Part shown: positions 5,429 through 23,422 of the stretch, piece by piece | How positions within the stretch are numbered: position 1 is the stretch's first letter | Layout: each line of letters begins with the position of its first letter | From: Candidatus Omnitrophota bacterium | Lineage (GTDB): Bacteria; Omnitrophota; Gorgyraeia; Tantalellales; Tantalellaceae | Direction of reading: 5' to 3' | Length of the DNA: 64,000 nucleotides | Assembly: GCA_014728075.1 (NCBI GenBank) | Contig: WJMG01000091.1 | Location: forward strand, 13,181 to 77,180 | Notes under the pieces: generated by a model | Database searches by the model: none | What the model was told of the DNA's origin: nothing | Seen by the model: the letters and a program-made list of their open reading frames with translations, nothing else | Position numbers and translations under genes: made by a program

Positions 5429-5572
5429 GAACAGGGTCCAGCCCGGCCCTATATATAAATAATTTGTTATAATGTTTACAAAATTATATTTGTGTGATAG
5501 TATAATGCGCGAATAAAAATAACTGCCGAAAACGGATATGATCCTTTTCGCGGAAGAAAGGAGGTGAGTTAA

Positions 5573-5842
5573 GTGTCGATCGTAAAGGAAAAGAAAAATG
5601 AGATCATAGGTACTTTTCGAAAACACGATAAAGATACCGGTTCAGCCGAGGTGCAGATCGCTCTTTTGAGCGAAAGGATAAATTCCCTGACTGAACACTT
5701 TAAAAAGCATAAGAAGGATTTTCATTCGAGAAGAGGGCTTCTGATGCTCGTAAGCAAAAGAAGGAAGCTTTTGACTTACCTTAAGTCCGTAGATAACGAT
5801 AAGTACCAGGAAGTTATCAAGAAACTCGGGCTCAGAAAGTAA
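5573..5842 (+). CDS. rpsO: 30S ribosomal protein S15
   Basis: 89 aa with [42 protein letters not shown] lies upstream. The gene sits immediately upstream of pnp. Confidence 0.95.
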
Positions 5843-5895
5843 TTAATGGTACATACATATAATGTTAACAGCAAGCTTAAGAAGGACAGGTATAC

Positions 5896-8004
5896 ATGAT
5901 TGATGTAAGAGCAGATCTGGGCAGGGAGCAACTCATTATTTCAACGGGGAAATTGGCTAAACAGGCAGGCGGTTCCGTTACGGTGCAGTACGGCGGTACT
6001 ATGGTGCTGGTGACATGCTGCTGCGCGAAAAAGGCAAAAGAAGCTATGGGATTTTTCCCGCTGACCGTGGAATATCAGGAAAAGACATTCGCGGCCGGTA
6101 AGATCCCCGGAGGATTTTTCAAAAGGGAAGGACGGCCTTCCGAAAAAGCGATTCTGACATCCAGGATGATAGACAGGCCGATACGCCCTCTTTTCCCCAA
6201 AGGGATGCTTAACGAGGTGCAGGTAGTGGTCACGGTGCTGTCGTACGACGGGGTCAACGATCCCGATGTCCTGGCCCTTACGGGCGCCTCTGCCGCTCTT
6301 ACTATATCGGAAATACCTTTCGAAGGTCCCATCGCGGGAGCGAGAGTGGGAATGGTCGACGACAGGTTCATCCTCAATCCGACAGCCGAAGAGATGGAAA
6401 AGAGCACTCTCGATGTTATACTTGTCGCGAACGAGGAGAGCGTCATCATGCTGGAGGCCGGGGCGGAAATGGTCTCCGAAGACAGGATGGTAGAAGCGAT
6501 AAAGTTCGGCCACGAGGGGATCAAGCCGCTTTTAAAGATACAGGACGAGCTCAGGGAAAGGGCGGGCAAGCCCAAGAGAGAGGATATAACCATTGTCGAG
6601 CTCGACCAGGAACTTTTCAAGAAAGTTAAGGAAAAGTACTCTTCAAAGATAAAAGAAGCTCTTCAGATAGTCGATAAGCAGCAGAGAATAGAAGAGCTCG
6701 ACAGCCTTGAAGCCCAGCTGATCGAAGAAGAAGCCGACCCGGAGAAGGAAGGTCTCGAGGCCGACCTGAAGCTGGCGTTCGCCGAGGTGGAGAAGGACCT
6801 GGTCAGGGAAGTCATATTAAAAGACCGCAAGAGGATAGACGGAAGGCAGTTCGATGAGATAAGGCCTCTTTCTTCCGAGGTCAACATGCTTCCAAGAACA
6901 CACGGTTCCGCTCTTTTTACCAGGGGGGAAACACAGGCGCTGGCCGTAGTTACACTGGGTACGGTGGCCGACGAGCAGAGGATCGATGCCCTGGAAGGCG
7001 AAACAACGCGTTCGTTCATGCTGCATTATAACTTTCCTTCTTTCAGCGTAGGCGAGACCAGACCGATGAGAGGACCGGGGAGGAGAGAGATCGGGCACGG
7101 CGCGCTTGCCCACAAAGCTCTTACTCCCGTTCTGCCCGAACCGGAGAATTTTCCTTATACCATAAGGATAGTTTCCGAGATACTGGAATCGAACGGTTCA
7201 AGTTCCATGGCCACCGTGTGTTCAGGGTCAATGTGCCTTATGGGCGGCGGTGTCCCCATAAAGGAATCCGTAGGCGGTATAGCCATGGGCCTGGTCAAGG
7301 AAGATGATAATTACGCTATTTTAACGGACATAGCCGGCGCCGAAGACCATCTCGGTGATATGGATTTCAAAGTTGCGGGGACCAGGACCGGTATAACCGC
7401 GGTGCAGATGGACCTGAAGGTCAAGGGTATTAACTACGACATACTTAAAGAGGGGTTCGAGAACGCCCGGAAGGCAAGGCTCAGTATAATCGACCATATG
7501 GAGCATACCATAGCGCGTCCCAGGGAAGACATGTCCCCGGATGCTCCCAGGATAGTCGTGGTGATGGTGCCGGTGGATAAGATCCGGGAAGTCATAGGCC
7601 CCGGCGGCAAGGTCATAAAGGGTATAATCGCGGAGACAGGCGCGGATGTTAATATAGAGGATGACGGGACCTGCCAGATAGCTTCCTCGAACAAAGAATC
7701 CCTGGACAAGGCCGTAGAGATGGTCAAAGGTCTCATTGAGGAACCGGAAGTAGGCAAGACCTACGAAGCTACAGTGGTCAAAATAATGGATTTCGGGGCA
7801 TTCGTCAGGTATATGCCCAATCAGGAAGGTCTCGTGCATGTTTCCGAAATATCCAATGAATATGTAAAGGATGTTCACCAGTTCCTGAAAGAAGGCCAGG
7901 AAGTGAAGGTCAAACTGGTCGGAATAGACGACCAGGGGCGGGCAAAGCTGAGCATGAAACAGGTTGAAGAGAAACAGGTTGAAGAGAATAAGGATACAGA
8001 TTAA
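5896..8004 (+). CDS. pnp: Polynucleotide phosphorylase
   Basis: 702 aa with two RNase PH domains, a KH domain and a C-terminal S1 domain (GLVHVSEISNEYVKDV). It follows rpsO as in the canonical operon. Confidence 0.95.
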   Translation: MIDVRADLGREQLIISTGKLAKQAGGSVTVQYGGTMVLVTCCCAKKAKEAMGFFPLTVEYQEKTFAAGKIPGGFFKREGRPSEKAILTSRMIDRPIRPLFPKGMLNEVQVVVTVLSYDGVNDPDVLALTGASAALTISEIPFEGPIAGARVGMVDDRFILNPTAEEMEKSTLDVILVANEESVIMLEAGAEMVSEDRMVEAIKFGHEGIKPLLKIQDELRERAGKPKREDITIVELDQELFKKVKEKYSSKIKEALQIVDKQQRIEELDSLEAQLIEEEADPEKEGLEADLKLAFAEVEKDLVREVILKDRKRIDGRQFDEIRPLSSEVNMLPRTHGSALFTRGETQALAVVTLGTVADEQRIDALEGETTRSFMLHYNFPSFSVGETRPMRGPGRREIGHGALAHKALTPVLPEPENFPYTIRIVSEILESNGSSSMATVCSGSMCLMGGGVPIKESVGGIAMGLVKEDDNYAILTDIAGAEDHLGDMDFKVAGTRTGITAVQMDLKVKGINYDILKEGFENARKARLSIIDHMEHTIARPREDMSPDAPRIVVVMVPVDKIREVIGPGGKVIKGIIAETGADVNIEDDGTCQIASSNKESLDKAVEMVKGLIEEPEVGKTYEATVVKIMDFGAFVRYMPNQEGLVHVSEISNEYVKDVHQFLKEGQEVKVKLVGIDDQGRAKLSMKQVEEKQVEENKDTD

Positions 8005-8462: not shown

Positions 8463-9230
8463 ATGACTATAGCGGAATCAGTGATCTCGGGTCTGGTACA
8501 GGGGCTTACCGAATTCCTTCCCGTTTCAAGCTCCGGTCATCTCGTTCTTTTGCACAGATTTTTCGGTTATGAAGAGCCGGGAGTTTTTTTTGATGTCTGT
8601 CTTCACGCCGGGACCCTTTTGTCGGTCCTTGTTTTTTTCGGGCCCTACATCGTTTCCCTGGCGGTCAAGAAAGATGGAAGATCACTGTTGATGCTCTTTA
8701 TCGCAACTCTGCCTGCCGTAGGGGCCGCGCTTTTATGGGGCGACGCAATTGAAGGGTTTTTTACCGACCCCCGTTCCGTCGCTTTTTTTCTTTTGTGTAC
8801 CGGCGTAATGCTTTTAGCCGCTCAATTACGAATGTACGGACAGAGGAATAGCGGAGGCGTAACACGCCCTGTACCGGCTTTTTTGATGGGGATAGCCCAG
8901 GCGCTCGCGCTTCTGCCGGGGATCTCCAGGAGCGGATCAACTATCTCGGCGGGAATACTTTCAGGGGTTTCGGAAGAAGAGGCTTTCAGGTTCTCTTTTC
9001 TGATGTCGATACCAGCCATAACCGGCGCGCTCGTATTTAAATCACGGAGTATAGGCGCAGCCGGCCTGGATCTGGATACCGTAACGGTCTACTCCGCCGG
9101 AATACTGACCGCGTTCGTTGCCGGCATCCTGAGCCTTTATGTCCTGCGGAAGGTGCTTAAGTTCAGGAAACTTTATTTTTTCGGTATATATTGCGTTGCG
9201 ATCGGTCTGACCGGTCTTTTTCGATGGTAA
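8463..9230 (+). CDS. uppP: Undecaprenyl-diphosphate phosphatase
   Basis: LVQGLTEFLPVSSSGHL is the BacA/UppP signature and the protein is polytopic. ATG 8463 was chosen over the track start at 8394. Confidence 0.9.
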   Translation: MTIAESVISGLVQGLTEFLPVSSSGHLVLLHRFFGYEEPGVFFDVCLHAGTLLSVLVFFGPYIVSLAVKKDGRSLLMLFIATLPAVGAALLWGDAIEGFFTDPRSVAFFLLCTGVMLLAAQLRMYGQRNSGGVTRPVPAFLMGIAQALALLPGISRSGSTISAGILSGVSEEEAFRFSFLMSIPAITGALVFKSRSIGAAGLDLDTVTVYSAGILTAFVAGILSLYVLRKVLKFRKLYFFGIYCVAIGLTGLFRW

Positions 9231-9239
9231 GCGCCGGGG

Positions 9240-11489
9240 TTGATAAAAATGGATCAGGTTAGAAAGAACGAAATAGTAGCTGTAGGTCTTTTCGCGCTGA
9301 GCCTTTTTCTGTTCCTCAGCATATTCACTTTCAGCGAACAGGATATAGCGCTTTTCACGAGCGATCCCAACCAGACGGCCCAGAATGCCACAGGTATCGT
9401 CGGAGCCTATGTGGGGGGCTTCCTGGTGTTCCTTCTCGGGATGGCATCTTATGTTATTCCTCTTCTGGTGCTGGTATGGGCTTTCACAAGGCTCCTGCAG
9501 TCCCGCCCGTCAAAGTTGTTCATGAAACTTTTCGGCACCGCGGTCCTGGTGACCGCGGTCAGCGCCAGTCTGAGCATGATGGCCGATTCCAGCAGGGTGA
9601 TGGCTTTCCGCAAGGGAGGGCTTATAGGTTCGCTGTCATCCGAGTTCCTTCTCGAGTACCTCGGCAGGGTAGGCGCAAATGTTTTTATAGGCGCCATGAT
9701 AGTCCTTTCCGTCCTGGCGGCTACAGAATTCCTTATACTCCCTCTCCTTATGAGCGTGATCAACTTTTTCAGGGACCTGCCCGCCAGGGTAAAACAGACT
9801 TTGCCCGAGGGACGGGAAAAAGAGGAGTCTGAGACCGTCAGGCAGCGAGTGGCGTCCGCCAGGGCCGAGATATCGAAGAAGATAAATGACATGAAAGCAC
9901 GCGCGGAACAGGCAAGGCAGGAAGCCGAAGAAAAGAAAGCAGAGCTGAAAGCCCTTAAAGAACGCACCGCCGCCCCGGAGCCCAAAATAGAGACATCCAG
10001 GACTTCCCCGAAAGCCGCGCCCGCTCCCGAAAGGGTAGCTCCCGTTTCAGACGGCAATACGGGGCAGAAGATAGATTACAAAATACCCTCCATACAGATC
10101 TTGAGAGCCCCTAAAAAGGTCAACATAAAGGAAAGGGAGAGTGACCTCAAGACCAAGGCCGCGATACTGGAAAGGACCCTGCTTGAGTTCGGGGTAGAAG
10201 CCAAGGTGGTAAAGATAAACAGGGGACCTGTTATTACTATGTATGAGCTTGAGCCTGCCGTAGGCACCAAGGTTAACAGGATAACATCCCTGAGCGATAA
10301 TATATCCCTGGCGATGAAATCCGCTAACATACGGATAGTCGCTCCGCTTCCCGGGAAGGGTACCATAGGCATAGAAGTTCCGAACGCCAAAAGCGAACTC
10401 GTTCGTATGAGGGATATACTGGAGACTTCGGAATATGCCGGGAACGAAGCTCCGCTCAAATTGGCTATCGGTAAGGACATAGGCGGGACACCGATAATAC
10501 TTGACCTGGCCAAAATGCCTCATTTGCTCATAGCGGGGGCTACGGGGTCGGGGAAGACCGTATGCATCAACTGCATAATAACCAGCCTTCTTTTCAACTC
10601 CACGCCCGACGAGGTCAAATTTCTCATGATAGACCCGAAAAGAGTTGAGTTGATGCCCTTCGAGGGTATACCCCATCTCGCTTCTCCTATAGTCACCAAT
10701 CCCAAAAAAGCGGCATCGGCGCTTAACTGGGCCATTTCGGAGATGGAAAGGCGTTACGAGGTATTCGCCGAGAAAGGTGTGCGTAACATAACCGCCTACA
10801 AGGAACGCATGGAGGAAGATGACGAGAACCTTCCTTACATTGTCATAATAGTCGATGAACTTGCCGATCTCATGATGGTGGCTCAGCAGGATGTCGAGGG
10901 GTCCATAATGCGTCTCGCCCAGCTCTCCAGGGCTGCCGGTATCCACATGATACTGGCCACGCAGCGGCCTTCGGTAAATGTCATCACGGGTACGATAAAA
11001 GCGAACTTTCCCGCCAGGATCTCCTTTAAGGTAGCTTCCAAAGTGGATTCCAGGACGGTTCTTGACGCCAACGGAGCCGAAAAGCTCCTGGGCAGAGGCG
11101 ATATGCTCGTAATGGAGCCCGGTGCCGCCGCTATCACCAGAGGACAGTGCAGCCTCGTTGAGGACGGTGAGATCAGGCAGGCAGTAAAGAACATAAAGTC
11201 ACAGGCAGGCCCCCGGTACATAGAGGAGGCCGTGGAGAAGCAGGAGACCAAAGCGGTCGGTGTGGAACAGGAAAAGGATGATCTTTACGACGAAGCCGTC
11301 AAGATAGTGGTGACCACGAAACAGGCTTCCGTTTCAATGGTCCAGAGAAAGCTTAGAGTAGGGTATACCAGGGCCGCGAGAATGATAGACATCATGGAGG
11401 AAGAAGGCATAGTCGGCCCGTACAACGGGTCCAAACCCCGGGATATACTCATCGAGGATATAGACGATCTCGTTGAACAGGAAAAATAA
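9240..11489 (+). CDS. ftsK: DNA translocase FtsK/SpoIIIE
   Basis: N-terminal TM segments, a linker rich in charged and proline residues, an FtsK ATPase domain (LLIAGATGSGKTVCINCIITSLL) and a C-terminal gamma wHTH domain. Confidence 0.9.
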   Translation: MIKMDQVRKNEIVAVGLFALSLFLFLSIFTFSEQDIALFTSDPNQTAQNATGIVGAYVGGFLVFLLGMASYVIPLLVLVWAFTRLLQSRPSKLFMKLFGTAVLVTAVSASLSMMADSSRVMAFRKGGLIGSLSSEFLLEYLGRVGANVFIGAMIVLSVLAATEFLILPLLMSVINFFRDLPARVKQTLPEGREKEESETVRQRVASARAEISKKINDMKARAEQARQEAEEKKAELKALKERTAAPEPKIETSRTSPKAAPAPERVAPVSDGNTGQKIDYKIPSIQILRAPKKVNIKERESDLKTKAAILERTLLEFGVEAKVVKINRGPVITMYELEPAVGTKVNRITSLSDNISLAMKSANIRIVAPLPGKGTIGIEVPNAKSELVRMRDILETSEYAGNEAPLKLAIGKDIGGTPIILDLAKMPHLLIAGATGSGKTVCINCIITSLLFNSTPDEVKFLMIDPKRVELMPFEGIPHLASPIVTNPKKAASALNWAISEMERRYEVFAEKGVRNITAYKERMEEDDENLPYIVIIVDELADLMMVAQQDVEGSIMRLAQLSRAAGIHMILATQRPSVNVITGTIKANFPARISFKVASKVDSRTVLDANGAEKLLGRGDMLVMEPGAAAITRGQCSLVEDGEIRQAVKNIKSQAGPRYIEEAVEKQETKAVGVEQEKDDLYDEAVKIVVTTKQASVSMVQRKLRVGYTRAARMIDIMEEEGIVGPYNGSKPRDILIEDIDDLVEQEK

Positions 11490-12267
11490 CATGCCGACCC
11501 CCAAGGAAATAGGCAACATTTTCAAGGAAGCCCGGAAGAAGAAGGGCTTAAGCGTCCTCGAAGCGGCTCACAAAAGCCGGATACTGGAAGAGGTGGTCAG
11601 GGATATCGAGACAGGTGTTTTCGACCGCCTCGGCAAACCTTATGTGAAAGGCTTTCTCGGGAAATACGCTAAATTTCTCGGGCTGGACGCCGATGATATA
11701 ATAGACCAGTACAGCTCGATATCTTCAAGGATCCCTTCAAAAGAACTGGATTTCGGACAGGACCCTAAGGAAAAGAAGGTCGATGTTCTTCCCGGGTACA
11801 GAAAAAAAAAGGTACAGGCGGCGATCGCTCTTTCCTTTTCGGCGCTTGTGGTCGTGTTCGTAATGTATCTTATAGGTTCCGCCCGCTCCAGGTCGGCAAC
11901 GAACGGCGGGAGGCGAATAGAGAGCGGGACCGCCGCGGAGAGACGCTCTTTATCCGTGAAACCGTCCGAAAGAACGGCTGTTACCCGTGACGGCAATTAC
12001 GAGCTTACGCTGAACGCCACCGGCGAGGTATGGGTGCAGGTCAAGCGGGGTGAGAACACGGTCTACGCCGGGATCATGCAGAGAGGTGACGCCAAGACCT
12101 TCTCCGATGACGGGCCGCTTACCGTCCTGACGGGAAAAGGGGAAGAACTGGAATTCGCTTTTAACGGCACGGACCTCGGCGTAATAGCCGAAGGTGTGGT
12201 CAAAGACATACGGGTCTCATCTGACGGTATAAAGGTCGGTTCAAGATGGGCAGTCCGGGGAAAATAG
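11473..12267 (+). CDS. RodZ-like cytoskeleton protein (XRE-type HTH, one TM segment, C-terminal DUF4115-like domain)
   Basis: An N-terminal HTH (GLSVLEAAHKSRILEEVVRDIE), a central TM segment (AIALSFSALVVVFVMYLIG) and a C-terminal beta-rich domain. Confidence 0.6.
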   Translation: MNRKNNMPTPKEIGNIFKEARKKKGLSVLEAAHKSRILEEVVRDIETGVFDRLGKPYVKGFLGKYAKFLGLDADDIIDQYSSISSRIPSKELDFGQDPKEKKVDVLPGYRKKKVQAAIALSFSALVVVFVMYLIGSARSRSATNGGRRIESGTAAERRSLSVKPSERTAVTRDGNYELTLNATGEVWVQVKRGENTVYAGIMQRGDAKTFSDDGPLTVLTGKGEELEFAFNGTDLGVIAEGVVKDIRVSSDGIKVGSRWAVRGK

Positions 12268-12281
12268 AACAGGCTCTCGAA

Positions 12282-13619
12282 ATGTCAAAGATATATCTCT
12301 TAAGCCTTGGGTGCCCGCGTAACATGAACGACAGTGAACTTCTGTTGTCCATGCTGGAAAAAGAAGGGTTCTCCGTTACCGACGACCCTGTCTCCGCCGA
12401 TGCCGCGATAGTGAATACCTGCGGGTTCGTGGAAGACGCGAAGCGTGAATCCATAGATGTGATTCTGCGTCTCGCGGAGTTGAAAAAAAAGGGTGACATC
12501 GAGCGCATAGTGGTAACGGGATGCCTTTCCCAGAGGTATCCCTCGGAACTGATGGATCAGATAGGCGAGATCGACGCTGTTTTCGGCACTTCCGATTTTC
12601 TGAAGATACCTTCCATGCTGGGCCTTGTCTTTTCGGGAAAAAGAATAAAAGAGGTCAACCCGGAACCGGATTTCCTTGACGACGGGACCACGGGCCGAAA
12701 GATCCTTACACCGCCCCATTACACTTATGTGAAGATACAGGAAGGCTGTTCCAACAGGTGTTCGTACTGTGTAATACCGGCCTTGAAGGGCAGGAGGAGG
12801 AGCAGAACGCCTTCTTCCATTATAACCGAGGTCCGGAGGCTTGTTTCTTCCGGAGAGGTCAGGGAGCTTATACTGATAGGGCAGGATACCACCTCGTACG
12901 GCATGGACCTGGGCCGGGAAGTACGGCTTCCCGCTCTATTGAGGGAGGTCTGTGCCGCTGCCGGAAATACCTGGGTAAGGCTTCTTTACACTCATCCCGC
13001 GCATTTTACCGATGAACTTACGGAGGTCGTTTCGGAAACCCCTAACCTCCTGAAATACATAGACCTGCCGGTGCAGCACATAAACGACAGGATACTGCGG
13101 GAGATGAACAGGTCCGTCAGCGGCGGGGAGGCGCGTTCGTTGATAAACGGCATCAGGAGACGGATCAAAGGCGTGGCGCTCAGGACTTCCGTAATAGTGG
13201 GGTTTCCCGGGGAGACTGAAAAAGAATTTTCGGAACTTCTTGATTTCCTGAAGGAAGTACGGTTTGAACGCCTGGGGGCGTTCGTTTATTCGAGGGAGGA
13301 AGGATCGGCCGCCGCGGATATGCCGGGCCAGGTGCCGGATGCCCTGAAGAAAGAGCGGTTTGACAGGGTGATGACCCTTCAAAGGGACATCTCCGCCGAG
13401 AACAACGCCTCGCTTATCGGTAACGAACTCGATGTTCTGATAGACGAGCCCGCCGGGGAAGGGCGTTATGCGGGGAGGTCCTATATGGACGCGCCCGAAG
13501 TGGACGGTGGCGTGTTCGTTCTGGGCGAGGGGCTATCCGCGGGTGACCTGGTAAAGGCCAGGATAACTGGAGCCATGGAATATGACCTGGTAGGAGAACT
13601 GACAGATGAACCTGCCTAA
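12282..13619 (+). CDS. rimO: Ribosomal protein S12 methylthiotransferase (radical SAM, MiaB/RimO family)
   Basis: IYLLSLGCPRNMNDSE is the UPF0004 domain. The radical-SAM motif CSNRCSYCVIP and a C-terminal TRAM domain are also present. Start set at ATG 12282. Confidence 0.85.
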   Translation: MSKIYLLSLGCPRNMNDSELLLSMLEKEGFSVTDDPVSADAAIVNTCGFVEDAKRESIDVILRLAELKKKGDIERIVVTGCLSQRYPSELMDQIGEIDAVFGTSDFLKIPSMLGLVFSGKRIKEVNPEPDFLDDGTTGRKILTPPHYTYVKIQEGCSNRCSYCVIPALKGRRRSRTPSSIITEVRRLVSSGEVRELILIGQDTTSYGMDLGREVRLPALLREVCAAAGNTWVRLLYTHPAHFTDELTEVVSETPNLLKYIDLPVQHINDRILREMNRSVSGGEARSLINGIRRRIKGVALRTSVIVGFPGETEKEFSELLDFLKEVRFERLGAFVYSREEGSAAADMPGQVPDALKKERFDRVMTLQRDISAENNASLIGNELDVLIDEPAGEGRYAGRSYMDAPEVDGGVFVLGEGLSAGDLVKARITGAMEYDLVGELTDEPA

Positions 13620-14196: not shown

Positions 14197-14639
14197 TGAA
14201 GAACCTTCACGAGAACATTTCCACTCTTTTCGGTCTTGGCAGGATCCCTTTCGCCCCGGGCACATGGGGGTCGTTCGCGGGCCTGCTGGTCGCTATAGTC
14301 TTTCGCGGGAGTCCTCTTTTGCTGGGTCTGCTTTTCGCTCTGCTTTTCCCCCTGGGAGTATTCTCCTCAGGGGTGGCCGAAAGACGCGCCGGGAAGAAGG
14401 ACCCTTCCGATATAATTATCGATGAATTTGTATGCATCCTGCCGATCTTCATAATAACGCCCGCGGAACCTTTTTACTTCGCGGCGGGTTTCCTTTTTTA
14501 CAGGCTGATAGACATTATCAAGCCACCTCCTTTGGGCTATTGTGAAAAGATAAAAGGAGGATGGGGGATAATGCTCGACGATCTCGGCGCCGCCGTATAT
14601 ACGACCGTTATATTACGGCTGCTTTCCCTTCTGATATGA
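14196..14639 (+). CDS. pgpA: Phosphatidylglycerophosphatase A
   Basis: LFGLGRIPFAPGTWGSFAGLL...GWGIMLDDLGAAVYT is the PgpA family signature. The gene overlaps the pgsA stop (TAATG). Confidence 0.8.
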   Translation: MKNLHENISTLFGLGRIPFAPGTWGSFAGLLVAIVFRGSPLLLGLLFALLFPLGVFSSGVAERRAGKKDPSDIIIDEFVCILPIFIITPAEPFYFAAGFLFYRLIDIIKPPPLGYCEKIKGGWGIMLDDLGAAVYTTVILRLLSLLI

Positions 14640-14688
14640 ACCACATATAGACCCACATCTATACATACTTGTCAGTTTTTCCCCTGGC

Positions 14689-14716
14689 TTGACACCTCAT
14701 TTTTTCCCTGTATACT
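14689..14716 (+). promoter_or_regulatory. Candidate sigma70-type promoter (TTGACA-N16-TATACT) upstream of the signalling operon
   Basis: TTGACA lies at 14689-14694 and TATACT at 14711-14716. The predicted TSS (about 14723) falls inside the first copy of the repeated TCAAAATACCTTG motif. Confidence 0.35.
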
Positions 14717-14963
14717 CAAAATACCTTGATAATTTATAACAAATCACATCAATAGCTACCTGTAAATATAGAAAAGCGGTGAATTGTATAAAAAGTAACG
14801 GCTTTTATAATTCTTGAACAAGGACTTTATAATGATAATTTATATGCTGCATATCTTCAGGCATATGCTGGAACATGTTGATATCCAAAGATATAGAAAA
14901 ACGGGTTCAGGGAACTCCGATCAAAATACCTTGTAAATTCAAATCGAATAAAGGGGTGGGAGA

Positions 14964-15149
14964 ATGATAAGTACGGTTATGACTGTCGAGGAACTCGCTA
15001 AATACCTCAAAATGAAAGTGGTTACGATCTATAAGCACGCTCAGGAAGGGAGAATACCGGGTTTTAAGGTAGGGTCCAAATGGCGCTTTAAAAAAGAAAC
15101 CATAGATGAATGGATCAGCCGGCAGGAAAGGCGTACCGGCCAATTTTAA
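14964..15149 (+). CDS. Small excisionase-family (MerR-superfamily, HTH_17) DNA-binding protein
   Basis: 61 aa with MTVEELAKYLKMKVVTIYKHAQEGRIPGFKVGSKWRFKKETIDEWI, which matches the excisionase/XIS HTH pattern. A GGGGTGGGAG RBS lies upstream. Confidence 0.7.
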   Translation: MISTVMTVEELAKYLKMKVVTIYKHAQEGRIPGFKVGSKWRFKKETIDEWISRQERRTGQF

Positions 15150-15162
15150 AGAAAGGATTCCC

Positions 15163-16536
15163 ATGGATTTTAATATCGCAGAAATAGATAATAGGAATAC
15201 TCCTAGAGTTCAATTAAATCTTCCTATTAAAATAAACAACAATAAGGGAGAAACAATAGATTTTAATGAATTAGGAATGGGATTTCGTACGCTAAATAAG
15301 ATTGAAAAAAGGGATTACAATGCAGAAATTAAACTAGATAGTGGGTGCATTGATTTTAATATTGAGATAATTTGGTCAAAGAAGGATAAAAAGTCAAATA
15401 CATACATCCATGGTGCAAAATTTTCAGAAATAAACCCTGTTAAGTTACAAAAAATAAGAAAAAAAGTTATTATCACAAAGTTGAAAAACACTATTAAATC
15501 TTTTTCTCTAAAAGCAGATAAGAAAGACTTAATGAGATTTTCAAAAGAAGTCTTAGCTTATTTGTCTTCCTTATATCATCTCTCAGAAAAACTAGATTCT
15601 GGCAATATGAGAGTTAAAAATGCATCAGAATTTTTAAAGACTAGAACAGACAAGGTGATGGAGGAAGCTAAAATTTTTCAAGATTCGATTAATAATAAAC
15701 TATTGGAGAAAAAAGCCAAAAAAGATTTTCGTGACCTGACGAGTTCTTGGGCCTATAAAGGGTTTATTGTTAAGAGATCTTTTGATAAGCCTCGAGGGTA
15801 TCCAGGTGATTTTAGGATAATGGAATATATTTATGACGAGATTTTAATATCAAAAGGGATTGGCCAGTGTTTTGATGTGTATTTCCAGAATAATGAATAT
15901 GCAGAAGCTGTTAGGAAAAGAAAAGACTGGATGAGGAGATATTTGGAAAATTTCATATCGGAAAAAAATAAGAAAAACATAAATATTTTAAATATAGCTT
16001 GTGGATCAAATCGAGAAATCAGAGAACTTTTGCATAATAAACCTTATGTTTATACACATCTTTCTGAAAAAGGAAAGAAAGTGATTTTGAATTTATTAGA
16101 TCAAGATAATGAAGCATTAGCCTTTTCTAACTTAAATCTAAAGTCTTTTAATCGTTTCGTTGACATAAGATTGCTTGATAATGATATTATGGATTTAACA
16201 AAAGAAAATGAAGTTCAAATTAATCAAAGCATGGATTTGATTTATACAATTGGATTGGCAGATTATTTACCAGACAGAATCTTGGGAAAGTTGCTCAATA
16301 GATGTGTGGATAATTTTTTAAAAAAAGATGGGAAGTTAGTTATTGCTCATAAAGATATTTCTCGTTATAGACCTATGCCTCCAAACTGGTTTTGTGATTG
16401 GAATTTTTATTCAAGAAATAAAGATGATTTAAATAATCTACTAAAAAAACATGTTGGATTTGATACTGTTGATGTTCAGTATTACAGAGATGATACTGGA
16501 ATTATTATTTTCGCAGAGTTGACAAAAATAAAATGA
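15163..16536 (+). CDS. PilZ-domain :: class I SAM-dependent methyltransferase fusion protein (putative c-di-GMP-responsive methyltransferase)
   Basis: The N-terminus has RNTPR (RxxxR) followed 19 aa later by DFNELG (D-x-N-x-x-G, a variant of PilZ DxSxxG). The C-terminus has methyltransferase motif I (ILNIACGSNREI), an acidic beta2 (LNLLDQDNE) and post I/III motifs (IRLLDNDIMDL; MDLIYTIGLADYL). ATG 15163 has a GAAAGGA RBS. The gene is markedly AT-rich. Confidence 0.6.
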   Translation: MDFNIAEIDNRNTPRVQLNLPIKINNNKGETIDFNELGMGFRTLNKIEKRDYNAEIKLDSGCIDFNIEIIWSKKDKKSNTYIHGAKFSEINPVKLQKIRKKVIITKLKNTIKSFSLKADKKDLMRFSKEVLAYLSSLYHLSEKLDSGNMRVKNASEFLKTRTDKVMEEAKIFQDSINNKLLEKKAKKDFRDLTSSWAYKGFIVKRSFDKPRGYPGDFRIMEYIYDEILISKGIGQCFDVYFQNNEYAEAVRKRKDWMRRYLENFISEKNKKNINILNIACGSNREIRELLHNKPYVYTHLSEKGKKVILNLLDQDNEALAFSNLNLKSFNRFVDIRLLDNDIMDLTKENEVQINQSMDLIYTIGLADYLPDRILGKLLNRCVDNFLKKDGKLVIAHKDISRYRPMPPNWFCDWNFYSRNKDDLNNLLKKHVGFDTVDVQYYRDDTGIIIFAELTKIK

Positions 16537-18692
16537 ATTTTCTAGCCTTTACTGGATTAATTAACTTTATTACCTGTATCGCTTTAGGTCTTTTTGTTCT
16601 TTTGAAAGGATTTAAGTCTCGCCAAAATATCACATACTTTTTTTTAAATGTAAGTGTTGCTGTTTTTAGCTTGGGGTATTTTCTCTGGCAAATAACATCC
16701 GATCTTTCAGCTGTTCAATGGTTTAAGTTATTAGTGGTAGGTATTATTTTAATTAATCAAGCATATCTTATTTTTGTGTTTACTTTTTTAAATATAATTA
16801 AACGCCATAAAGTACCATTGACCATATGTTTTGCATTGAACTTATTTTATATCTTTGCAAATTACAAAGGATGGTTGTACCAAGATTTTCTAAATAAATT
16901 CGAATTAGGTATTTGGCCGATTCCAACAAATTTATTTGTGTCATATCTTATTTTTTGGGTTGTTCAATGTGTTTATGGGTTTATTTATTTATTTATTAAT
17001 GCAAATAAAGGCTCAACGAGAAGAAGATTGCAAATAAGGTATTTCACAATAGCGGCAGTTGTTGGATTTCTGGGAGGCGCGACTAATTGGCCTATTTGGT
17101 TCAATATATATTTTCCTCCGTACGGTAATATCTTAATAAGTTTATATATCGCAATTGTTGCTTATGCAATTGTTAGGCATCAATTGATGGATATTAGCGT
17201 AATTGTAAAGAAAACGATAGTTTTTGCCGGTTTGTTTATAGCTTCGTACGCGGTTTTTGCAAGTTTTGCTTATATCGGTCTAGGCGTTATAGAAAACTTT
17301 ACTAAAAATAGATGGATAGCAATGCTGCCTTCGGTATTTGTTGTAGTTGTTATGTTGCGGCCGTTAGAGAGTTTTTTGAGGAATGTTACCGATAAATTCC
17401 TCTTTCAAAAAAAATACGATTATAAGACATTGCTCAAGACCTTTGCCGACGATGTCCTGATGGTCCTTGACATGAACGAACTTGTCAACCTTACCGTTAA
17501 TAAATTAACCGAGATCGTAAAGCTGGAGAACGCCACGATCTTGCTGAGCTCGGGGGAAGACGGCGATTTTAGCATAGTGGCCAGTTCCGGAATGGAGGAC
17601 CCCGAATATGAAATAACTTCAGGTTCCGGGATAAGCGATCTGCTTATGACAAAACCCGATTATCTTCTTTTTGAGGACTCCTCCGATACCGATAACTATG
17701 ACAATGAAGTCAGGCGTGCTATGAAAGACCTTCAGGCCCGGCTTCTTATCCCGCTTGTCCACAGGAACCAGGTAGTGGGGCTGCTTACCCTTGGAAAGAA
17801 GAAGTCTGATGAGGAATTCAGCCAGGACGACATCGATATCCTTCTTCCCATATCAAGGACGCTTTCCATAGCCATCGCCAACGCCAGGCTGTTCGAGCAG
17901 CTATCCGAAGCCCAGGCACAGGCGGCGCAGAGGGAGAAAATGGCCGTTATAGGCACGCTTTCGGCCGGGATCAATCACGAGATCTGCAATCCCCTGGGTA
18001 TCGCCAGGGGGCAGTGCGAGATGTTCCTTCTTAACCTTAAAGAGGGCCTTTACGACGCTAAAGACCCCGAAGAGCTTCTTTTGAAAGCCCGGGAGATAAT
18101 GGAGAAGGTCATAACCGAAACCGACCGGGCGACCGTTATTACACGCAAGCTTTCCTCCTTCGCCAAACCGGCAAAGGGGAACCTCCGGGAAGGCGTAGTC
18201 GTGGCCGAGGAACTGAGAGAGGTGATTTCGCTTCTCGAGCATGATCTCAGGCTGGATAATATAGAGATCGTAGAGGATTTCGGCGGCGATGTCCCGCCGA
18301 TAGTCGCCGACAAAAAACAGCTTCAGGAGATATTTTTCAACCTGATAAGGAACGCGGCCCAGTCGATCAAGGCGGAGGGCGCGATAATACTGCGGACCCG
18401 GTCTGACAGGGGCAGGGTTTCTGTCGAGATAGAGGATACGGGAGAGGGAATAAGTGAAAGCAACCTTAAGCGCATATTCGATCCGTTCTTCACGACAAAA
18501 GACCCGGGTAAAGGCACCGGTCTCGGGCTTTTTATCGTCAAGCAGATCGTTGAGAGGAACAACGGCCGAATATCGGTTGCCAGCGAATCCGGGAAGGGGA
18601 CCGTGTTCTCGGTCGTATTCGGTTCCGTTAAGGGCGCAGGCCTTTTTGCCGGCGGAGAGGACGGCGGGAAAAGAAAGGTAGCGGTTAAATGA
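16533..18692 (+). CDS. Sensor histidine kinase with N-terminal 7TM sensor module, GAF domain, HisKA and HATPase_c
   Basis: About 230 aa of polytopic N-terminus paralogous to the HK at 20828-22432. A GAF-like middle domain. The H-box INHEICNPLGI and the G-boxes DTGEGI...GTGLGL are present. The gene overlaps the upstream stop (ATGA). Confidence 0.85.
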   Translation: MNFLAFTGLINFITCIALGLFVLLKGFKSRQNITYFFLNVSVAVFSLGYFLWQITSDLSAVQWFKLLVVGIILINQAYLIFVFTFLNIIKRHKVPLTICFALNLFYIFANYKGWLYQDFLNKFELGIWPIPTNLFVSYLIFWVVQCVYGFIYLFINANKGSTRRRLQIRYFTIAAVVGFLGGATNWPIWFNIYFPPYGNILISLYIAIVAYAIVRHQLMDISVIVKKTIVFAGLFIASYAVFASFAYIGLGVIENFTKNRWIAMLPSVFVVVVMLRPLESFLRNVTDKFLFQKKYDYKTLLKTFADDVLMVLDMNELVNLTVNKLTEIVKLENATILLSSGEDGDFSIVASSGMEDPEYEITSGSGISDLLMTKPDYLLFEDSSDTDNYDNEVRRAMKDLQARLLIPLVHRNQVVGLLTLGKKKSDEEFSQDDIDILLPISRTLSIAIANARLFEQLSEAQAQAAQREKMAVIGTLSAGINHEICNPLGIARGQCEMFLLNLKEGLYDAKDPEELLLKAREIMEKVITETDRATVITRKLSSFAKPAKGNLREGVVVAEELREVISLLEHDLRLDNIEIVEDFGGDVPPIVADKKQLQEIFFNLIRNAAQSIKAEGAIILRTRSDRGRVSVEIEDTGEGISESNLKRIFDPFFTTKDPGKGTGLGLFIVKQIVERNNGRISVASESGKGTVFSVVFGSVKGAGLFAGGEDGGKRKVAVK

Positions 18693-19495
18693 ACATTCCG
18701 TACGGAGCCGGAGAGGGAGGCAGGAAAGCGATCCTCTCTATAGATGACGAAACCAGTTTTACGGAACTGCTCAAGGGGTATTTTGAGCTGAGAGGCTACA
18801 GGGTCGATGTCACCAACGACGGTTCCAAGGGGCTTGAGCTCGCGAAAAGGAACCGGTACGATGTTGCGCTTCTCGACCTTAAAATGGAAGGCATGGACGG
18901 GGACGAGGTCATGCGGAAGATGAGGCGGATAAATCCCCGTACAAGGACTATATTCATAACCGCTTACAACGATTCGGGCAAGACCCGGAAGAGGCTTCTT
19001 GACGAAGGGGCCTTCGCGTTTGTGGAAAAACCGATCTCTAGCCTTAAAGACCTGGAGGAAACGGTCAGGCGGGCCGTTGAACCTCCCACAAAGAAAGGGG
19101 CTGACGCTATGCTTAAGATCCTGGTCGTGGACGACGAGATAGATATCTGTGATTTCGTGAAAAATTTTTTCAAGGACAGGAATTTCGAGGTTTTCGTGGC
19201 CCACGACGGCAGGGAGGCGCTCAACCTGGTCGAGTCCAGGAGACCCGATATAGTGCTCCTGGATGTCAAGATGCCCGTCATGGACGGCATGCAGGCCCTG
19301 AGGGAGATAAAGAAAGTGAACAGGAAAAGCCGGATAATAATGATCACGGCGGTGAACGATACCGACAGGATAGAGGAAGCGAGGCGACTCGGTGTGTACG
19401 AGTACATAACCAAGCCTCTTTTGCTGGAACAGCTGGAAAGGACCGTGCTGACCGTGGCCGAAGAGATAAAAATGGAGGAGACAGAGGGTGAATAA
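18689..19495 (+). CDS. Response regulator with two tandem receiver (REC) domains and no output domain
   Basis: REC1 has ILSIDDETS...VALLDLKMEGMDG and REC2 has KILVVDDEIDI...IVLLDVKMPVMDG. The gene overlaps the HK stop (ATGA). Confidence 0.85.
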   Translation: MNIPYGAGEGGRKAILSIDDETSFTELLKGYFELRGYRVDVTNDGSKGLELAKRNRYDVALLDLKMEGMDGDEVMRKMRRINPRTRTIFITAYNDSGKTRKRLLDEGAFAFVEKPISSLKDLEETVRRAVEPPTKKGADAMLKILVVDDEIDICDFVKNFFKDRNFEVFVAHDGREALNLVESRRPDIVLLDVKMPVMDGMQALREIKKVNRKSRIIMITAVNDTDRIEEARRLGVYEYITKPLLLEQLERTVLTVAEEIKMEETEGE

Positions 19496-20837
19496 CTCTA
19501 CGAAAAACGACAATTTCGCGCAGGAGAATAACTGGCTTAAGCTGCAGGACTGGATATCGGAAAAGATAAGGAGCTGCGACGGCGGCCTTATCCCCATGGA
19601 CAGCGACCTCGGCAGCAGGAGAGAAGAACCGGAGCTTGATTACCAGTACTTTCTCGAGAACGCGTCCAGGACCATGATACGCTTCAAGAAGGTGGAGCAC
19701 CTGATAAAGATGATCGTGCGCACCATCGACGAACAGGTAAAGGTCACTCATACGGCCATGCTGGTCCTCAGCAGGGATAAAGACTGCTTTAACCTTATCG
19801 ATTCCAAAGGCGTGGAGGGGATGAAGATACCCGTGGGGTTTATCCGCCTGACCTTTACCAACCCGCTGGTGAAATTATTCAACGAGAGGCGGAATTTCAC
19901 GATCTCCGAAACCGGGGCCGTAAGCTACAAGGGTCTGCTGGATTCGCTTACGAGGAACGAAAAAGTGGCCGGTAACACCGGGCTGTCGGAGCTTGTGAAA
20001 CTTTCGATAAAGCAGATGGAGCTTCTCAAGGCCACCCTGTGCGTCCCGATATATTACAAAAAGGACCTTCTCGGTGTCTTTGTCCTGGGGAAAAAGCTTT
20101 CCAACATGAGCTTCTGCAGGCAGGAGATAAGTTTTTTCGGAACGCTCGCCAACGATGTCGCCATGGCCATTTCGAACGCCAATCTCATACAGGACCTGCA
20201 GGAGAAGATATACGAGGTCCACGAGCTTTACGAAAGGGAGCACCGTATATTCATCAATACTTCGATCTCGCTTGCGGCCGCTATAGACGCCAGGGACCCG
20301 TATACCCACGGCCATACCGAACGAGTGACCCAGTACGCGCTTTCGATATCCGAGGAGCTTGACGATCTGCCGGAAGCACAGGCTTACCTGAACTTCAGGG
20401 AAACCCTGCACATAGCGGGCCTCCTCCACGATGTGGGGAAGATAGGAGTACCGGACAGTATATTGAACAAGGAGGACCAGCTTACTTCAGAGGAGTACGA
20501 ACGGATAAAAGAACACTCGCTTACAGGCGCGGCGATACTTTATCCGATAAGCGAACTGAAAGGCGTGTGCAACGAGGTGCGGGCGCATCACGAAAGATAC
20601 GACGGGGAAGGCTATCCTGACGGGCTGAAAGCCGACGAGATACCTTTCGTCGCGCGGATAATCGCCGTCGCGGACACCTTTGACGCCGTAACCAGCGACA
20701 GGCCGTACAGGAGGAAAAAACCGGCCGAGACGGCCGTCAGGATAATAGAGGAAAATTCGGGAACTCAGTTCGACCCGGTAGTTGTAAGCGCTTTTCTGCT
20801 GGCATATAAAAAAGGCAAGTTCAAGAATTATGTCTGA
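19488..20837 (+). CDS. HD-GYP domain c-di-GMP phosphodiesterase with N-terminal GAF-like domain
   Basis: HGHTERV...HDVGKIGVP...HHERYDGEGYPDGL (HD plus GYP motifs) are present. The GTG start overlaps the upstream gene end. Confidence 0.85.
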   Translation: MNNSTKNDNFAQENNWLKLQDWISEKIRSCDGGLIPMDSDLGSRREEPELDYQYFLENASRTMIRFKKVEHLIKMIVRTIDEQVKVTHTAMLVLSRDKDCFNLIDSKGVEGMKIPVGFIRLTFTNPLVKLFNERRNFTISETGAVSYKGLLDSLTRNEKVAGNTGLSELVKLSIKQMELLKATLCVPIYYKKDLLGVFVLGKKLSNMSFCRQEISFFGTLANDVAMAISNANLIQDLQEKIYEVHELYEREHRIFINTSISLAAAIDARDPYTHGHTERVTQYALSISEELDDLPEAQAYLNFRETLHIAGLLHDVGKIGVPDSILNKEDQLTSEEYERIKEHSLTGAAILYPISELKGVCNEVRAHHERYDGEGYPDGLKADEIPFVARIIAVADTFDAVTSDRPYRRKKPAETAVRIIEENSGTQFDPVVVSAFLLAYKKGKFKNYV

Positions 20838-22432
20838 TCTCCGGCAGGCAGCTCTATCCTGAAAGAGGCGCCTTCCTTTGTGCTTGAGACTTTTACCGAG
20901 CCCTCGTGTTTCTCTATAATACCGTGCACTACGCTTAAGCCTAATCCGGAACCTTCGTCCTTCCTGGAGAAGAAGGGGTCGAATATCCTCTTCAGGTCTT
21001 CCTTTTCTATCCCCGTGCCGGTATCGGATATTTCAACGAACACTTTCGTTCCTTCTTTCCCGGTCCTTATTACGATCGAACCCGGCGGGCGGATCGCGTC
21101 TTTCGCGTTAAGGAGAAGGTTGAGGAAAGCCTGTTTCAATTGGACCGGATCGGCGTTTATGCGGGGAAGGTCGGACAGGTGCCTTTCAACAGATATGTTC
21201 TTTCTGAGAAAATCGTTGTTCAGGAACTCGCAAGTCTCGTTTATCAAAAGATTAACATCCGTTCTGCGTATATTGAGGCTCGCCGGTTTTGAGAATTCAA
21301 GCAATTGCCTGACGATGTTGTTGATCTTGTCGACTTCGGCCGGGACTATCCGGCAGAACTTCTCTAAAAAAACGGGGTCGTTGTGCCGGGCGGGCAAAAA
21401 CTCGGAAAAGGTCTTTATCGAGGTTAAGGGGTTCTTTATCTCATGCGCCATGCCGGCGGCAAGGGTGGATATGGCCTTGAGCTTTTCTGCTCGCTGGAGT
21501 TCATTTCTCAACTTTATATTTTCTTCGTCGATTTGCGAGATGGATCCATGAAAGAAATATTTGTCTAAAAGATATTGAATTTTGTTTTTTATAGGATTAA
21601 ATAAAAAAAGGAAAAAACATAAAATAAACAAAGAGAAAGAAATAGAATGATATTTATAGTAATTTCTAAATATATGTTCGAGAATAAAGATGGTCGAAAT
21701 GTATAGTGCTAAAAGAGTTGAAACGATAACGCTATATATAACAGTTTTTTTAAAAACTATATTAATGTCGAGTAATTTGTGTGCAATAATGGTATAAGCA
21801 AGTATTCCGATATAAATTGTTAAAAGTAAATTTAAGTAAGGGGGGATAGGGATTTTAAAAAAAAGAAAATAATTAGTTGAACCGCCTAGATATCCTGCTA
21901 TCAATGCAATGACAATATATTTTATTTTATTTTTATTTGCTGAAGATGCTTTACGATAACATTTTAATGGTGTCACAATTGATAACATAGCATAAGTGAA
22001 AAAATATGCTAAAAAAACATAATAAATTGGGCCTGGAATTCCCCAGTATGGAAAAATGTCTACAGAACGCACGCCTGATATGAAATATGGCGTAAAAATT
22101 AATAGTGCGATAGTTGTTCCGAATAAATATCCTATAAAAAGCAATTTATCTCGTTTAATCTTTAAGAGAGTAGACACGAAATGAAAAGTAGTAATAGGTA
22201 TAAATACAGCGCCTAAATGTAGGAATCGAAACCAGAATAAAACTTTAATAGGGATTGTTGATAAGGGCCAAAAGATATATCCAAAACTCCAAATTGCTAT
22301 GAAGACATTCATTATTGAAAAGCGAAAATTAATTCTTGAATGGGGGTTTTTAGATAATACATAGACGGCTAAGATAAGTGCACCTATGAAATTTATTGCT
22401 CCAGATAGTGAAAAAAAATGTAAATAATTCAT
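20828..22432 (-). CDS. Sensor histidine kinase (7TM sensor module, HisKA, HATPase_c)
   Basis: The N-terminal polytopic domain is paralogous to the 16533 HK (compare AHKLLDINIVFKKT with RHQLMDISVIVKKT). The H-box MAHEIKNPLTSI and the ATPase G-boxes DTGTGI...GSGLGL are present. Confidence 0.85.
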   Translation of the reverse strand: MNYLHFFSLSGAINFIGALILAVYVLSKNPHSRINFRFSIMNVFIAIWSFGYIFWPLSTIPIKVLFWFRFLHLGAVFIPITTFHFVSTLLKIKRDKLLFIGYLFGTTIALLIFTPYFISGVRSVDIFPYWGIPGPIYYVFLAYFFTYAMLSIVTPLKCYRKASSANKNKIKYIVIALIAGYLGGSTNYFLFFKIPIPPYLNLLLTIYIGILAYTIIAHKLLDINIVFKKTVIYSVIVSTLLALYISTIFILEHIFRNYYKYHSISFSLFILCFFLFLFNPIKNKIQYLLDKYFFHGSISQIDEENIKLRNELQRAEKLKAISTLAAGMAHEIKNPLTSIKTFSEFLPARHNDPVFLEKFCRIVPAEVDKINNIVRQLLEFSKPASLNIRRTDVNLLINETCEFLNNDFLRKNISVERHLSDLPRINADPVQLKQAFLNLLLNAKDAIRPPGSIVIRTGKEGTKVFVEISDTGTGIEKEDLKRIFDPFFSRKDEGSGLGLSVVHGIIEKHEGSVKVSSTKEGASFRIELPAGDQT

Positions 22433-22443
22433 ATCATGGAAGA

Positions 22444-22803
22444 TTATTTTAATAAATTTCTTGTTTTTTCAAAAACTTCTGATTTGTTGAAAGGCTTGGA
22501 AATATATTCTACAGCTCCTAATTTCATTGCTTTTGTTGCCATTTCAACACTTTGATATCCCGTGATTATTATCACTTTCAGTTCCGGGGCTATTTTCCTG
22601 ATCTCCTCTAAAGTCTCAAGCCCGTTACGGACGGGCATTTTTATATCTAGAAGCAGGCCGTCGTAAGGGGCTTCTTTGATCTTGTTTACGGCTTCCGCGC
22701 CGTTATTCGCGAAATCAAGCTCGTAATCGTTTTCAAGGATAAGGTTCAGCGACTCGCGCACACCTTCCTCGTCGTCGCATATCAGTATCCGTTTTTTCTG
22801 CAT
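22444..22803 (-). CDS. Single-domain CheY-like response regulator receiver
   Basis: 119 aa with ILICDDEEGV...LLLDIKMPVRNGLE...KPF. It lies 11 nt upstream of the - strand HK. Confidence 0.85.
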   Translation of the reverse strand: MQKKRILICDDEEGVRESLNLILENDYELDFANNGAEAVNKIKEAPYDGLLLDIKMPVRNGLETLEEIRKIAPELKVIIITGYQSVEMATKAMKLGAVEYISKPFNKSEVFEKTRNLLK

Positions 22804-22870: not shown

Positions 22871-23422
22871 CTATAAAGCCGGCGGAGATATTACGCAGAT
22901 CGCTTCGGCCTTTGACCTGCCCTTGTTGGTGAATGTATGGGGGAGCGAGGCGTCAAAATACAGGCTGTCGCCGGTCTTAAGCGAATAATCCGATTTTCCC
23001 ACTACGGCCGTCATCGCCCCCGAAAGTATGTAAATAAATTTCTCCACCCCGGTCCTGTTCTCTTCAGGCTGGGTCTTGCCCCCGGGATCGAGCCGTATGA
23101 CCAGGGGCATTATCTTTTTGTCCATGGTCTTGGTGACGAGCAGTTCATAGCGGGCCTTGGGCGAATGCACGAAATGCTCTGTTCTTCTTTTCCTGGGTAC
23201 GCTTTCAACTGTCTTTGATTCTTCCTCGATGCCGGCGTAAAGTTCGGCCAGCGATGTGTTCAGTGCTTTACAGATGTTCTGGTGGGCTTCCAGCGTTCCC
23301 GTCATCTTGTTGTTTTCCATTCTGCTGAGAGTCGCAAGCGCGACACCGCTTTTCTCCGACAGTTCGTTAAGGGTTATCCCGCGGTCTTTTCTCAACTGAC
23401 GCAACTTTTTGCCTATTTTCAT
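22871..23422 (-). CDS. XRE-family HTH plus cupin-domain transcriptional regulator
   Basis: The N-terminus has LRQLRKDRGITLNELSEKSGVALATLSRMEN (an XRE HTH). The C-terminus has a cupin fold (GDSLYFDASLPHTFTN). Confidence 0.8.
   Translation of the reverse strand: MKIGKKLRQLRKDRGITLNELSEKSGVALATLSRMENNKMTGTLEAHQNICKALNTSLAELYAGIEEESKTVESVPRKRRTEHFVHSPKARYELLVTKTMDKKIMPLVIRLDPGGKTQPEENRTGVEKFIYILSGAMTAVVGKSDYSLKTGDSLYFDASLPHTFTNKGRSKAEAICVISPPAL

Follow-up and report, generated by a model that had tools for sequence, protein, structure and literature searches.

Mosaic penicillin-binding-protein genes of Streptococcus and Neisseria arise by interspecies homologous recombination; their donors are known, and the exchanged blocks differ by 10-25%. 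In the O-antigen (rfb) clusters of Enterobacteria, divergent low-GC alleles sit at a fixed position, with conserved flanks as possible recombination arms. Histidine kinases of the HisKA_7TM type join a seven-transmembrane (7TM) sensor (PF16927) to HisKA (PF00512) and HATPase_c (PF02518) domains and occur with a CheY-like receiver; this sensor family has no known ligand or signal. Lineage-specific expansion of histidine kinases with shuffling of N-terminal sensory domains, and without transposons nearby, has been described (Alm, Huang and Arkin 2006, PMC1630713). Here we analyzed a receiver-kinase gene pair on a 64,000-nucleotide stretch of a Candidatus Omnitrophota bacterium (assembly GCA_014728075.1, contig WJMG01000091.1, positions 13,181 to 77,180), referred to as the window herein. 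A low-GC segment, block 2, covers the end of the receiver gene and the sensor-coding part of the kinase gene, HK2. With modest confidence, we read block 2 as a tract acquired from a low-GC relative by homologous replacement, the two crossovers having fallen in conserved motifs.

Block 2 in the receiver-HK2 gene pair

An AT-rich block at 21545-22570 was the original prediction from this DNA, and its coordinates and description proved accurate by sliding GC, change-point fitting and codon-level GC. Sliding GC fell from 0.47-0.57 to 0.23-0.32 across ~21500 to ~22550. A two-change-point maximum-likelihood fit, with a log-likelihood gain of 92, placed the limits of the block as listed in Table 1, with a GC of 0.28 inside vs 0.51 outside and 2-log-unit support for the edges at 21494-21551 and 22537-22596. 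The smooth GC profile that had been named as the refuting outcome was not seen; the boundaries are sharp. Across the whole 64-kb window, the only 1-kb stretches with GC <0.40 belong to this block and to a second one, block 1, which takes in the sensor-coding part of another kinase gene, HK1.

The signal resides in synonymous sites. We compared the GC content of third codon positions (GC3) with the value that a segment's amino acids should give under the codon usage of eight neighboring genes. HK2 codons 1-296 had a GC3 of 0.22 vs 0.61 expected (z = -14.5), and receiver codons 76-119 had 0.20 vs 0.63 (z = -6.1). The receiver head, the HK2 core (0.62 observed vs 0.62 expected) and pgsA, a control membrane protein, were all normal, with z from -0.1 to -0.9. 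The amino acids of the HK2 sensor are AT-shifted too: F, Y, M, I, N and K (FYMINK) reach 0.47, and GC at first and second codon positions (GC1 and GC2) is 0.31 and 0.30, which is what a long stay in a low-GC genome should produce. When followed codon by codon, GC3 switches after receiver codon 81 (~22561) and again at HK2 codon ~297 (~21544). The receiver gene is thus GC-rich at its start and AT-rich in its last third, and the kinase-side edge falls at the sensor/core boundary, both as had been predicted. The AT-rich character was also said to continue through the intergenic spacer, which does lie inside the block; this spacer is merely 11 nucleotides long.

HK2 is a kinase of 534 amino acids (aa) encoded at 20828-22432 on the minus strand. 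Its HisKA_7TM match (PF16927) spans aa 15-223 (E = 8.9e-11; 42.5 bits vs a cut-off of 28.6), a hydropathy scan found further transmembrane-like segments at aa 232-250 and 263-281, and the HisKA (PF00512) and HATPase_c (PF02518) domains occupy aa 322-383 and 428-530. The sensor/core junction, junction A, is 16 residues past the last transmembrane-like segment and ~25 residues ahead of the Pfam HisKA match. Upon alignment of 35 homologues, H329 and the G-box glycines were invariant, and the conserved columns of the family began at aa ~285-303; the highly conserved QIDEEN..KL..EL begins at junction A. Both the receiver and the HK2 frames are intact, and HK2 has every family-invariant residue. HK2 is 100% identical to the protein GF408_08415, which forms a cluster with one member from a single assembly; ~120 full-length homologues, nearly all from Omnitrophota, align over 85-100% of its length and are 33-57% identical. 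A GGATCC (BamHI) site at 21546-21551 lies exactly at the sensor/core junction; we saw no further sign of engineering and take the site as a coincidence.

In relatives, the receiver tail has a GC3 of 0.45-0.57, and it is low only in the window. The protein conservation of the tail (62-64%) matches that of the head (64-72%). Since the tract runs 114 nucleotides into a conserved receiver that is low-GC there in the window alone, this boundary is explained by a tract endpoint but not by a property of sensor coding. We also considered whether low GC stems from faster protein divergence and rejected this because equally divergent stretches are GC-normal: between the window and its relative L081 (relatives' loci are numbered with L herein), HK2 core stretches at aa 340-465 match the sensor in divergence (29-63% vs 38-72%) and have normal GC3. 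Likewise, the nearby TPR gene is only 51-53% identical to those of relatives, in which its GC3 is ~0.6.

Based on these results, we propose that a resident GC-normal operon met a low-GC counterpart of this syntenic locus and that a mosaic receiver-kinase operon resulted. About 1 kb would have been swapped in frame, comprising the last 38 receiver codons, the 11-nucleotide spacer and the kinase sensor (aa 1-296). The crossovers would lie where nucleotide conservation is highest, just past the receiver IITGY and where the juxtamembrane helix QIDEEN begins, ahead of DHp/HisKA. The likely donor would be an unsampled low-GC Omnitrophota relative with a homologous operon, and relatives such as L166/L167, which are syntenic and low-GC, could be donors of this kind. 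The exchange would have replaced the input sensor and kept the N-terminal two-thirds of the resident receiver and the DHp/catalytic core, so that a working two-component pair remained. The DHp/catalytic core and the N-terminal part of the receiver make up the kinase-receiver recognition surface, and we infer that the phosphotransfer partnership would be preserved while signal specificity changes.

Table 1. Features of the window and HK2-type kinase counts at the same slot in relatives
Feature	Position	Strand	Basis or remark
Low-GC block 2	21500..22578	-	change-point fit; codon-level limits ~21545-22560
Junction A, sensor/core	21530..21560	-	GC3 switch at HK2 codons ~295-301 (FHGSISQID)
Junction B, within receiver gene	22545..22575	-	after codon 81 (VIIITG/YQSVE); codon view, support interval
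CheY-like stand-alone receiver, 119 aa, intact	22444..22803	-	PF00072 (Response_reg), E = 5.6e-30
Receiver low-GC 3' third, codons ~82-119, just past conserved IITGY	22447..22560	-	GC3, codon view
11-nucleotide spacer, receiver stop to kinase start, inside block 2	22433..22443	-	direct sequence reading
HK2 sensor module, aa 1-296	21545..22432	-	PF16927, hydropathy, GC3
HK2 GC-normal core	20828..21544	-	juxtamembrane helix (QIDEEN...), HisKA and HATPase_c Pfam matches
Low-GC block 1	14629..17431	+	intergenic stretch, HTH_17, PilZ-methyltransferase gene, HK1 7TM module
HK1, 7TM-GAF-HisKA-HATPase kinase	16533..18692	+	Pfam matches
Double-receiver protein, GC-normal, between the two kinases	18689..19495	+	Pfam, GC3
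GAF/HD-GYP protein, GC-normal, between the two kinases	19488..20837	+	Pfam, GC3
XRE-HTH/cupin regulator, GC-normal, receiver neighbor in all relatives	22871..23422	-	Pfam, contexts in relatives
No HK2-type kinase in slot (receiver-HK2 pair absent)	L002, L005		
One HK2-type kinase in slot	window, L001, L081, L169		
Two HK2-type kinases in slot	L164 (8001-11242)		
Three HK2-type kinases in slot	L166 (5994-10797), L167 (6400-11203)		
Four HK2-type kinases in slot	L165 (1498-8192)		one opposite in direction to the other three

The kinase locus among Omnitrophota relatives

The gene order around the pair is kept in relatives, whose UvrA proteins have identities of 69-82%: rimO, pgsA, pgpA, HTH_17, a set of variable genes, HK1, one or more receivers, HD-GYP, the HK2-type kinase or kinases, receiver, XRE-cupin, uvrA and TPR. 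A 7TM-HisKA-HATPase kinase of ~533 aa occupies the same position, between the HD-GYP gene and the receiver/XRE-cupin/uvrA genes. Because the same kinase is found at the syntenic position, the 7TM-plus-core architecture at this locus is, as judged from these comparisons, ancestral and not a new fusion. This bears on the proposal that a 7TM module had been delivered onto a GC-rich kinase core: import of the module is plausible, and formation of a new fusion is not. Between none and four HK2-type kinases occupy the slot (Table 1); the patchy presence among close relatives applies to the receiver-HK2 gene pair and not to the low-GC tract itself. Genomic GC3 ranges from ~0.43 to 0.71 among relatives with UvrA 74-82% identical (from the uvrA genes of L166/L167, L004, L168, the window, L164 and L001), and base composition must accordingly be evolving fast in this Omnitrophota clade. 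In L169, the HK2 orthologue (14634-16333) has a gene call of 345 aa, and the frame upstream of it reads through the full 7TM module (MINLYGISN...); the short call appears to reflect the start codon picked by the gene caller rather than a pseudogene. In L164, a small gene at 7230-7592 that matches 23S_rRNA_IVP and bAvd, the latter being the accessory protein family of diversity-generating retroelements, lies between XRE-cupin and the receiver; it is absent from the window.

Sensors and cores differ strongly in conservation at this locus. HK2-type sensors, counting positional orthologues and array members, are 30-64% identical, and their cores 59-92%; for HK1 the corresponding values are 31-42% and 64-74%. 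The window receiver is 62-72% identical to its positional orthologues. Tandem paralogues within one genome carry core patches of 97-100% nucleotide identity. For instance, L165_b/c (L165 3099-6312) share such a patch around aa 444-480 and L166_a/b (L166 5994-9193) around aa 458-495, both in the ATP-binding part of the core, and identity in both pairs falls to 35-50% upstream of aa ~190-280. Near-identical core patches next to divergent sensors point to recent gene conversion that was restricted to the cores of tandem paralogues.

Neighbor-joining trees with 200 bootstraps gave a similar picture. Sensors grouped by type across genomes, with an a-type clade of the window, L081, L164_a, L165_a and L166_b (88%) and a pairing of L164_b with L165_b (88%). 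Cores grouped by genome, with L166_a joined to L166_b (97%) and L165_b, c and d together (100%). The sensor and core histories are thus strongly incongruent at the family level, a conflict that carries 88-100% support. Incongruence between the sensor and kinase parts was also anticipated by the original prediction, and it holds for the family, in which cores group by genome (97-100%) and sensors by type. It was not detectable for the window gene, whose sensor (88%) and core (with L165_a, 68%) both fall with a-type orthologues.

We next compared GC between the two parts of each kinase in 33 family members from metagenomes. GC3 of the core minus GC3 of the sensor had a mean of 0.06, a standard deviation of 0.085 and a maximum of 0.24; the value for the window is 0.39. 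The a-type sensor is low-GC in L081 (GC3 0.25) and in L164_a (windowed GC3 12-48), and over the N-terminal part of the L169 HK2 windowed GC3 is ~0.18-0.25, despite uvrA GC3 values of 0.64-0.69 in these three genomes. Low GC also marks the HK1 sensors of L164 and L169, the sensor-core step recurs in L089, L113, L094 and both tandem kinases of L092, and all four kinases of L165 have lower-GC sensors. The kinase array of L166/L167 has a GC3 of 0.28 and includes an a-type sensor 53% identical to that of the window. GC-normal modules exist too, namely the HK1 sensors of L002, L005 and L168 (GC3 0.56-0.66) and the 7TM modules of L164_b, L087, L104 and L110. These show that 7TM coding does not need low GC, and an intrinsic low-GC requirement of 7TM coding was rejected on this ground. 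The locus of protein P0002 (L081-L083) occurs on 13 contigs from several assemblies and is shown in three separate assemblies, and the mosaics of L164, L169, L089 and L113 come from other samples. Such recurrence in independent assemblies means that low-GC-sensor mosaics are real biological objects. In L081 (9605-11608) and L169 (16333-16689), the receiver gene is low-GC at its 5' end and GC-normal at its 3' end, the opposite of the window, so receiver-side compositional boundaries differ between lineages.

Block 1 was described as carrying a 7TM sensor paralogous to that of block 2, and the two are indeed distant paralogues, with PF16927 in both and 29-32% identity. Within the block, HTH_17 (14964-15149) is mostly native-like with a GC3 of 0.51, the PilZ-methyltransferase gene (15106-16536) has 0.25, and the HK1 7TM module (16533 to ~17400) has 0.28 and switches at codon ~285. 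The HTH_17 gene is a conserved resident present in all relatives. Block 1 as a window-specific gene insertion that would prove import was rejected, since the order HTH17, PilZ-methyltransferase, HK1 is syntenic in L169 and L168. L169 repeats block 1 at 8808-12491 in a genome with GC3 ~0.6: its syntenic PilZ-methyltransferase, 44% identical to that of the window, has a GC3 of 0.25 and its HK1 sensor 0.15-0.30. In L168 (8777-12491), the same two genes are present with normal GC; gene order there is rearranged: HTH_17 is present twice, and HD-GYP and XRE lie farther upstream. The HTH_17 and PilZ-methyltransferase genes overlap at 15106-15149 in the window, and some Omnitrophota homologues (P0140, P0222, P0239) have PF12728 and PF07238 fused in one protein. 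Overlap here and fusion elsewhere suggest that the two may form a functional pair, possibly a c-di-GMP-linked regulator beside the HD-GYP phosphodiesterase cluster. Lastly, milder GC dips (0.41-0.46) at 5429-5895 and 50602-51187 are intergenic, hold no open reading frame (ORF) of at least 90 aa and are not further mosaic blocks; judged by translation, the flanking ORFs resemble ribF and pnp at one dip and rho and prfA at the other.

Accounts of the low-GC tract

Import from a low-GC donor, the best explanation of block 2, is based on its composition and on its odd edge within the receiver gene. We infer from these the donor, the direction of the exchange (import as opposed to an overwriting of the GC-normal parts), its recency and its functional consequence. 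That the locus family recombines at this position follows from its zero to four tandem kinases, its converted cores and its sensor/core tree conflict. Several results weigh against import. A full-length protein search found no donor, the closest sensor being 56-57% identical, and no meaningful direct or inverted repeats or mobile-element hallmarks were found at the block boundaries. The longest words shared with six sampled relatives are only 14-18 nucleotides, which are very short anchors for RecA-type recombination. No discordance between the sensor and core trees is detectable for the window gene, since L165_a, the weakly supported partner of its core, is itself a-type. Low GC in this orthologous sensor type extends to several lineages with UvrA only 74-82% identical, and the PilZ-methyltransferase/HK1-sensor pair of block 1 is likewise low-GC in L169; with low-GC sensors recurring across saturated lineages, imports must have happened many times. 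Moreover, sensors of GC-rich hosts lie below or about equal to their cores in GC and never clearly above, which could indicate a systematic process in situ. Other searches were negative within their scope. A search with the 296-aa sensor module alone returned five weak matches and nothing closer, and it carries little weight, since neither the query's own protein nor the 57% homologue was recovered; transmembrane sequence of low complexity seems to defeat the candidate step of such a word-indexed search. Block 2 had no similarity in plasmids, phages or viral contigs, and no integrase or transposase genes were present among the ORFs of 12.5-27 kb.

Persistent low GC in situ is an unlikely but not remote account. 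It holds that the sensors, and the accessory gene of block 1, are vertically inherited near an AT-biased mutational equilibrium, where a GC-raising force (GC-biased gene conversion or weak selection for GC-ending codons) is ineffective. Either the hypervariable segments would not take part in recombination with conspecific alleles, or repeated local sweeps would lower the efficacy of selection in them. In its favor, the window, L081, L164 and L169 share a low-GC sensor type at a UvrA identity at which synonymous sites are saturated, and the GC3 profiles of three a-type orthologues are alike in shape, with a minimum at aa ~180-300. The low-GC PilZ-methyltransferase and HK1 sensor of L169, exactly like those of the window, and the lower-GC sensors in both L092 kinases and all four of L165 fit it as well, as does a sensor-core difference that is mostly positive and never strongly negative in the family survey. 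What it does not accommodate is the conserved receiver tail, low-GC in the window only, nor the GC-normal state of equally divergent HK2 core stretches and of TPR in relatives. The orthologous sensors of L002, L005, L168 and L164_b are GC-normal though equally divergent (31-42% identity), and L166 cores with conversion patches of 100% identity are as AT-rich as the sensors, so conversion there is not visibly GC-biased. In a related and unlikely proposal, the low-GC sensors and the adjacent PilZ-methyltransferase would be ancient divergent alleles of a maintained trans-specific cassette system that escape the GC-raising process, with gene conversion continually evening out the kinase cores. If so, the intragenic GC3 step would be a read-out of where recombination or GC-favoring selection stops.

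The remaining accounts are less probable. We consider it distinctly improbable that HK2 is an intragenomic hybrid formed by unequal crossover or gene conversion between tandem paralogues, with the sensor from one and the core from another. Relatives do carry two to four tandem kinases with converted cores, and their identity breakpoints at aa ~190-280 are near the window junction; the window, however, has a single HK2 and no conversion template across its 64 kb, the only core similarity being that of HK1 at 38%, and a hybrid leaves the GC3 contrast of 0.2 vs 0.62 and the low-GC receiver tail unexplained. An assembly chimera, in which a GC-normal population and a co-occurring low-GC relative were joined at conserved motifs into a mosaic present in no cell, is very improbable. 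It would agree with a single metagenome assembly, a kinase cluster (P0001) of one member for which the exact protein gave no second assembly, and the placement of both junctions in the most conserved motifs, at which an assembler might pass from one sequence to the other. Against it, four junctions in 8 kb (two blocks) would all need to be in frame, exact words shared with the six sampled relatives do not exceed 14-18 nucleotides, and mosaics of the same kind appear in the independent assemblies of relatives (the 13 contigs of the P0002 locus; L164, L169, L089, L113). The usual k-mers of metagenome assemblers are longer than such words. We give practically no credence to an artefact of amino-acid composition, by which AT-rich codons of membrane helices (F, I, L, Y, N, K) would by themselves produce the block. 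The FYMINK, GC1 and GC2 values of the sensor go in that direction, but the soluble receiver tail drops likewise, pgsA and the GC-normal 7TM modules of relatives do not, and this artefact was rejected because GC3 in the sensor is far below what its amino acids and local codon usage predict. Taken together, we retain the homologous replacement tract as our reading of block 2.

Relation to described systems

The replacement reading makes the locus a codon-resolved example of signaling re-tooling, in which the input module would have been swapped out at the boundary between membrane and cytoplasm, leaving the kinase core and most of the receiver resident. The locus is a hot spot, with zero to four tandem kinases, hypervariable sensors and gene-converted cores, and across Omnitrophota, GC-normal cores are repeatedly found with low-GC sensors. 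Should the low GC turn out to be a maintained state and not an import, this locus would allow a test of whether biased gene conversion or selection against AT-biased mutation sets bacterial GC content.

HK2 has the same architecture as known HisKA_7TM kinases (PF16927, PF00512 and PF02518, with a CheY-like receiver), including the H-box AGMAHEIKNPL, the G-box residues and a receiver paired in the operon, and it is unusual only in the nucleotide composition of its sensor-coding part. As in the pattern of Alm et al. (2006), cores are conserved and the sensors upstream of them replaced or diverged, the expansions in relatives here being tandem arrays. Unlike in that pattern, a 7TM module would have been exchanged for another 7TM module and not for a different domain type, and a sharp GC3 scar reaches into the receiver gene. 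The locus also shares an in-frame, foreign-looking block in a resident gene, probable crossovers in conserved stretches and the lack of a mobile element with the mosaic penicillin-binding-protein genes, and it differs from them in that block 2 was recognized by composition only, without a known donor. Highly divergent low-GC alleles at one chromosomal position in higher-GC relatives recall the rfb clusters, although the variable unit here is a signaling input module within a gene, compared across genomes, and not a set of biosynthetic genes. The case is a clean example of known processes, namely sensor shuffling, mosaic genes and low-GC flexible segments, and involves no new mechanism or system.

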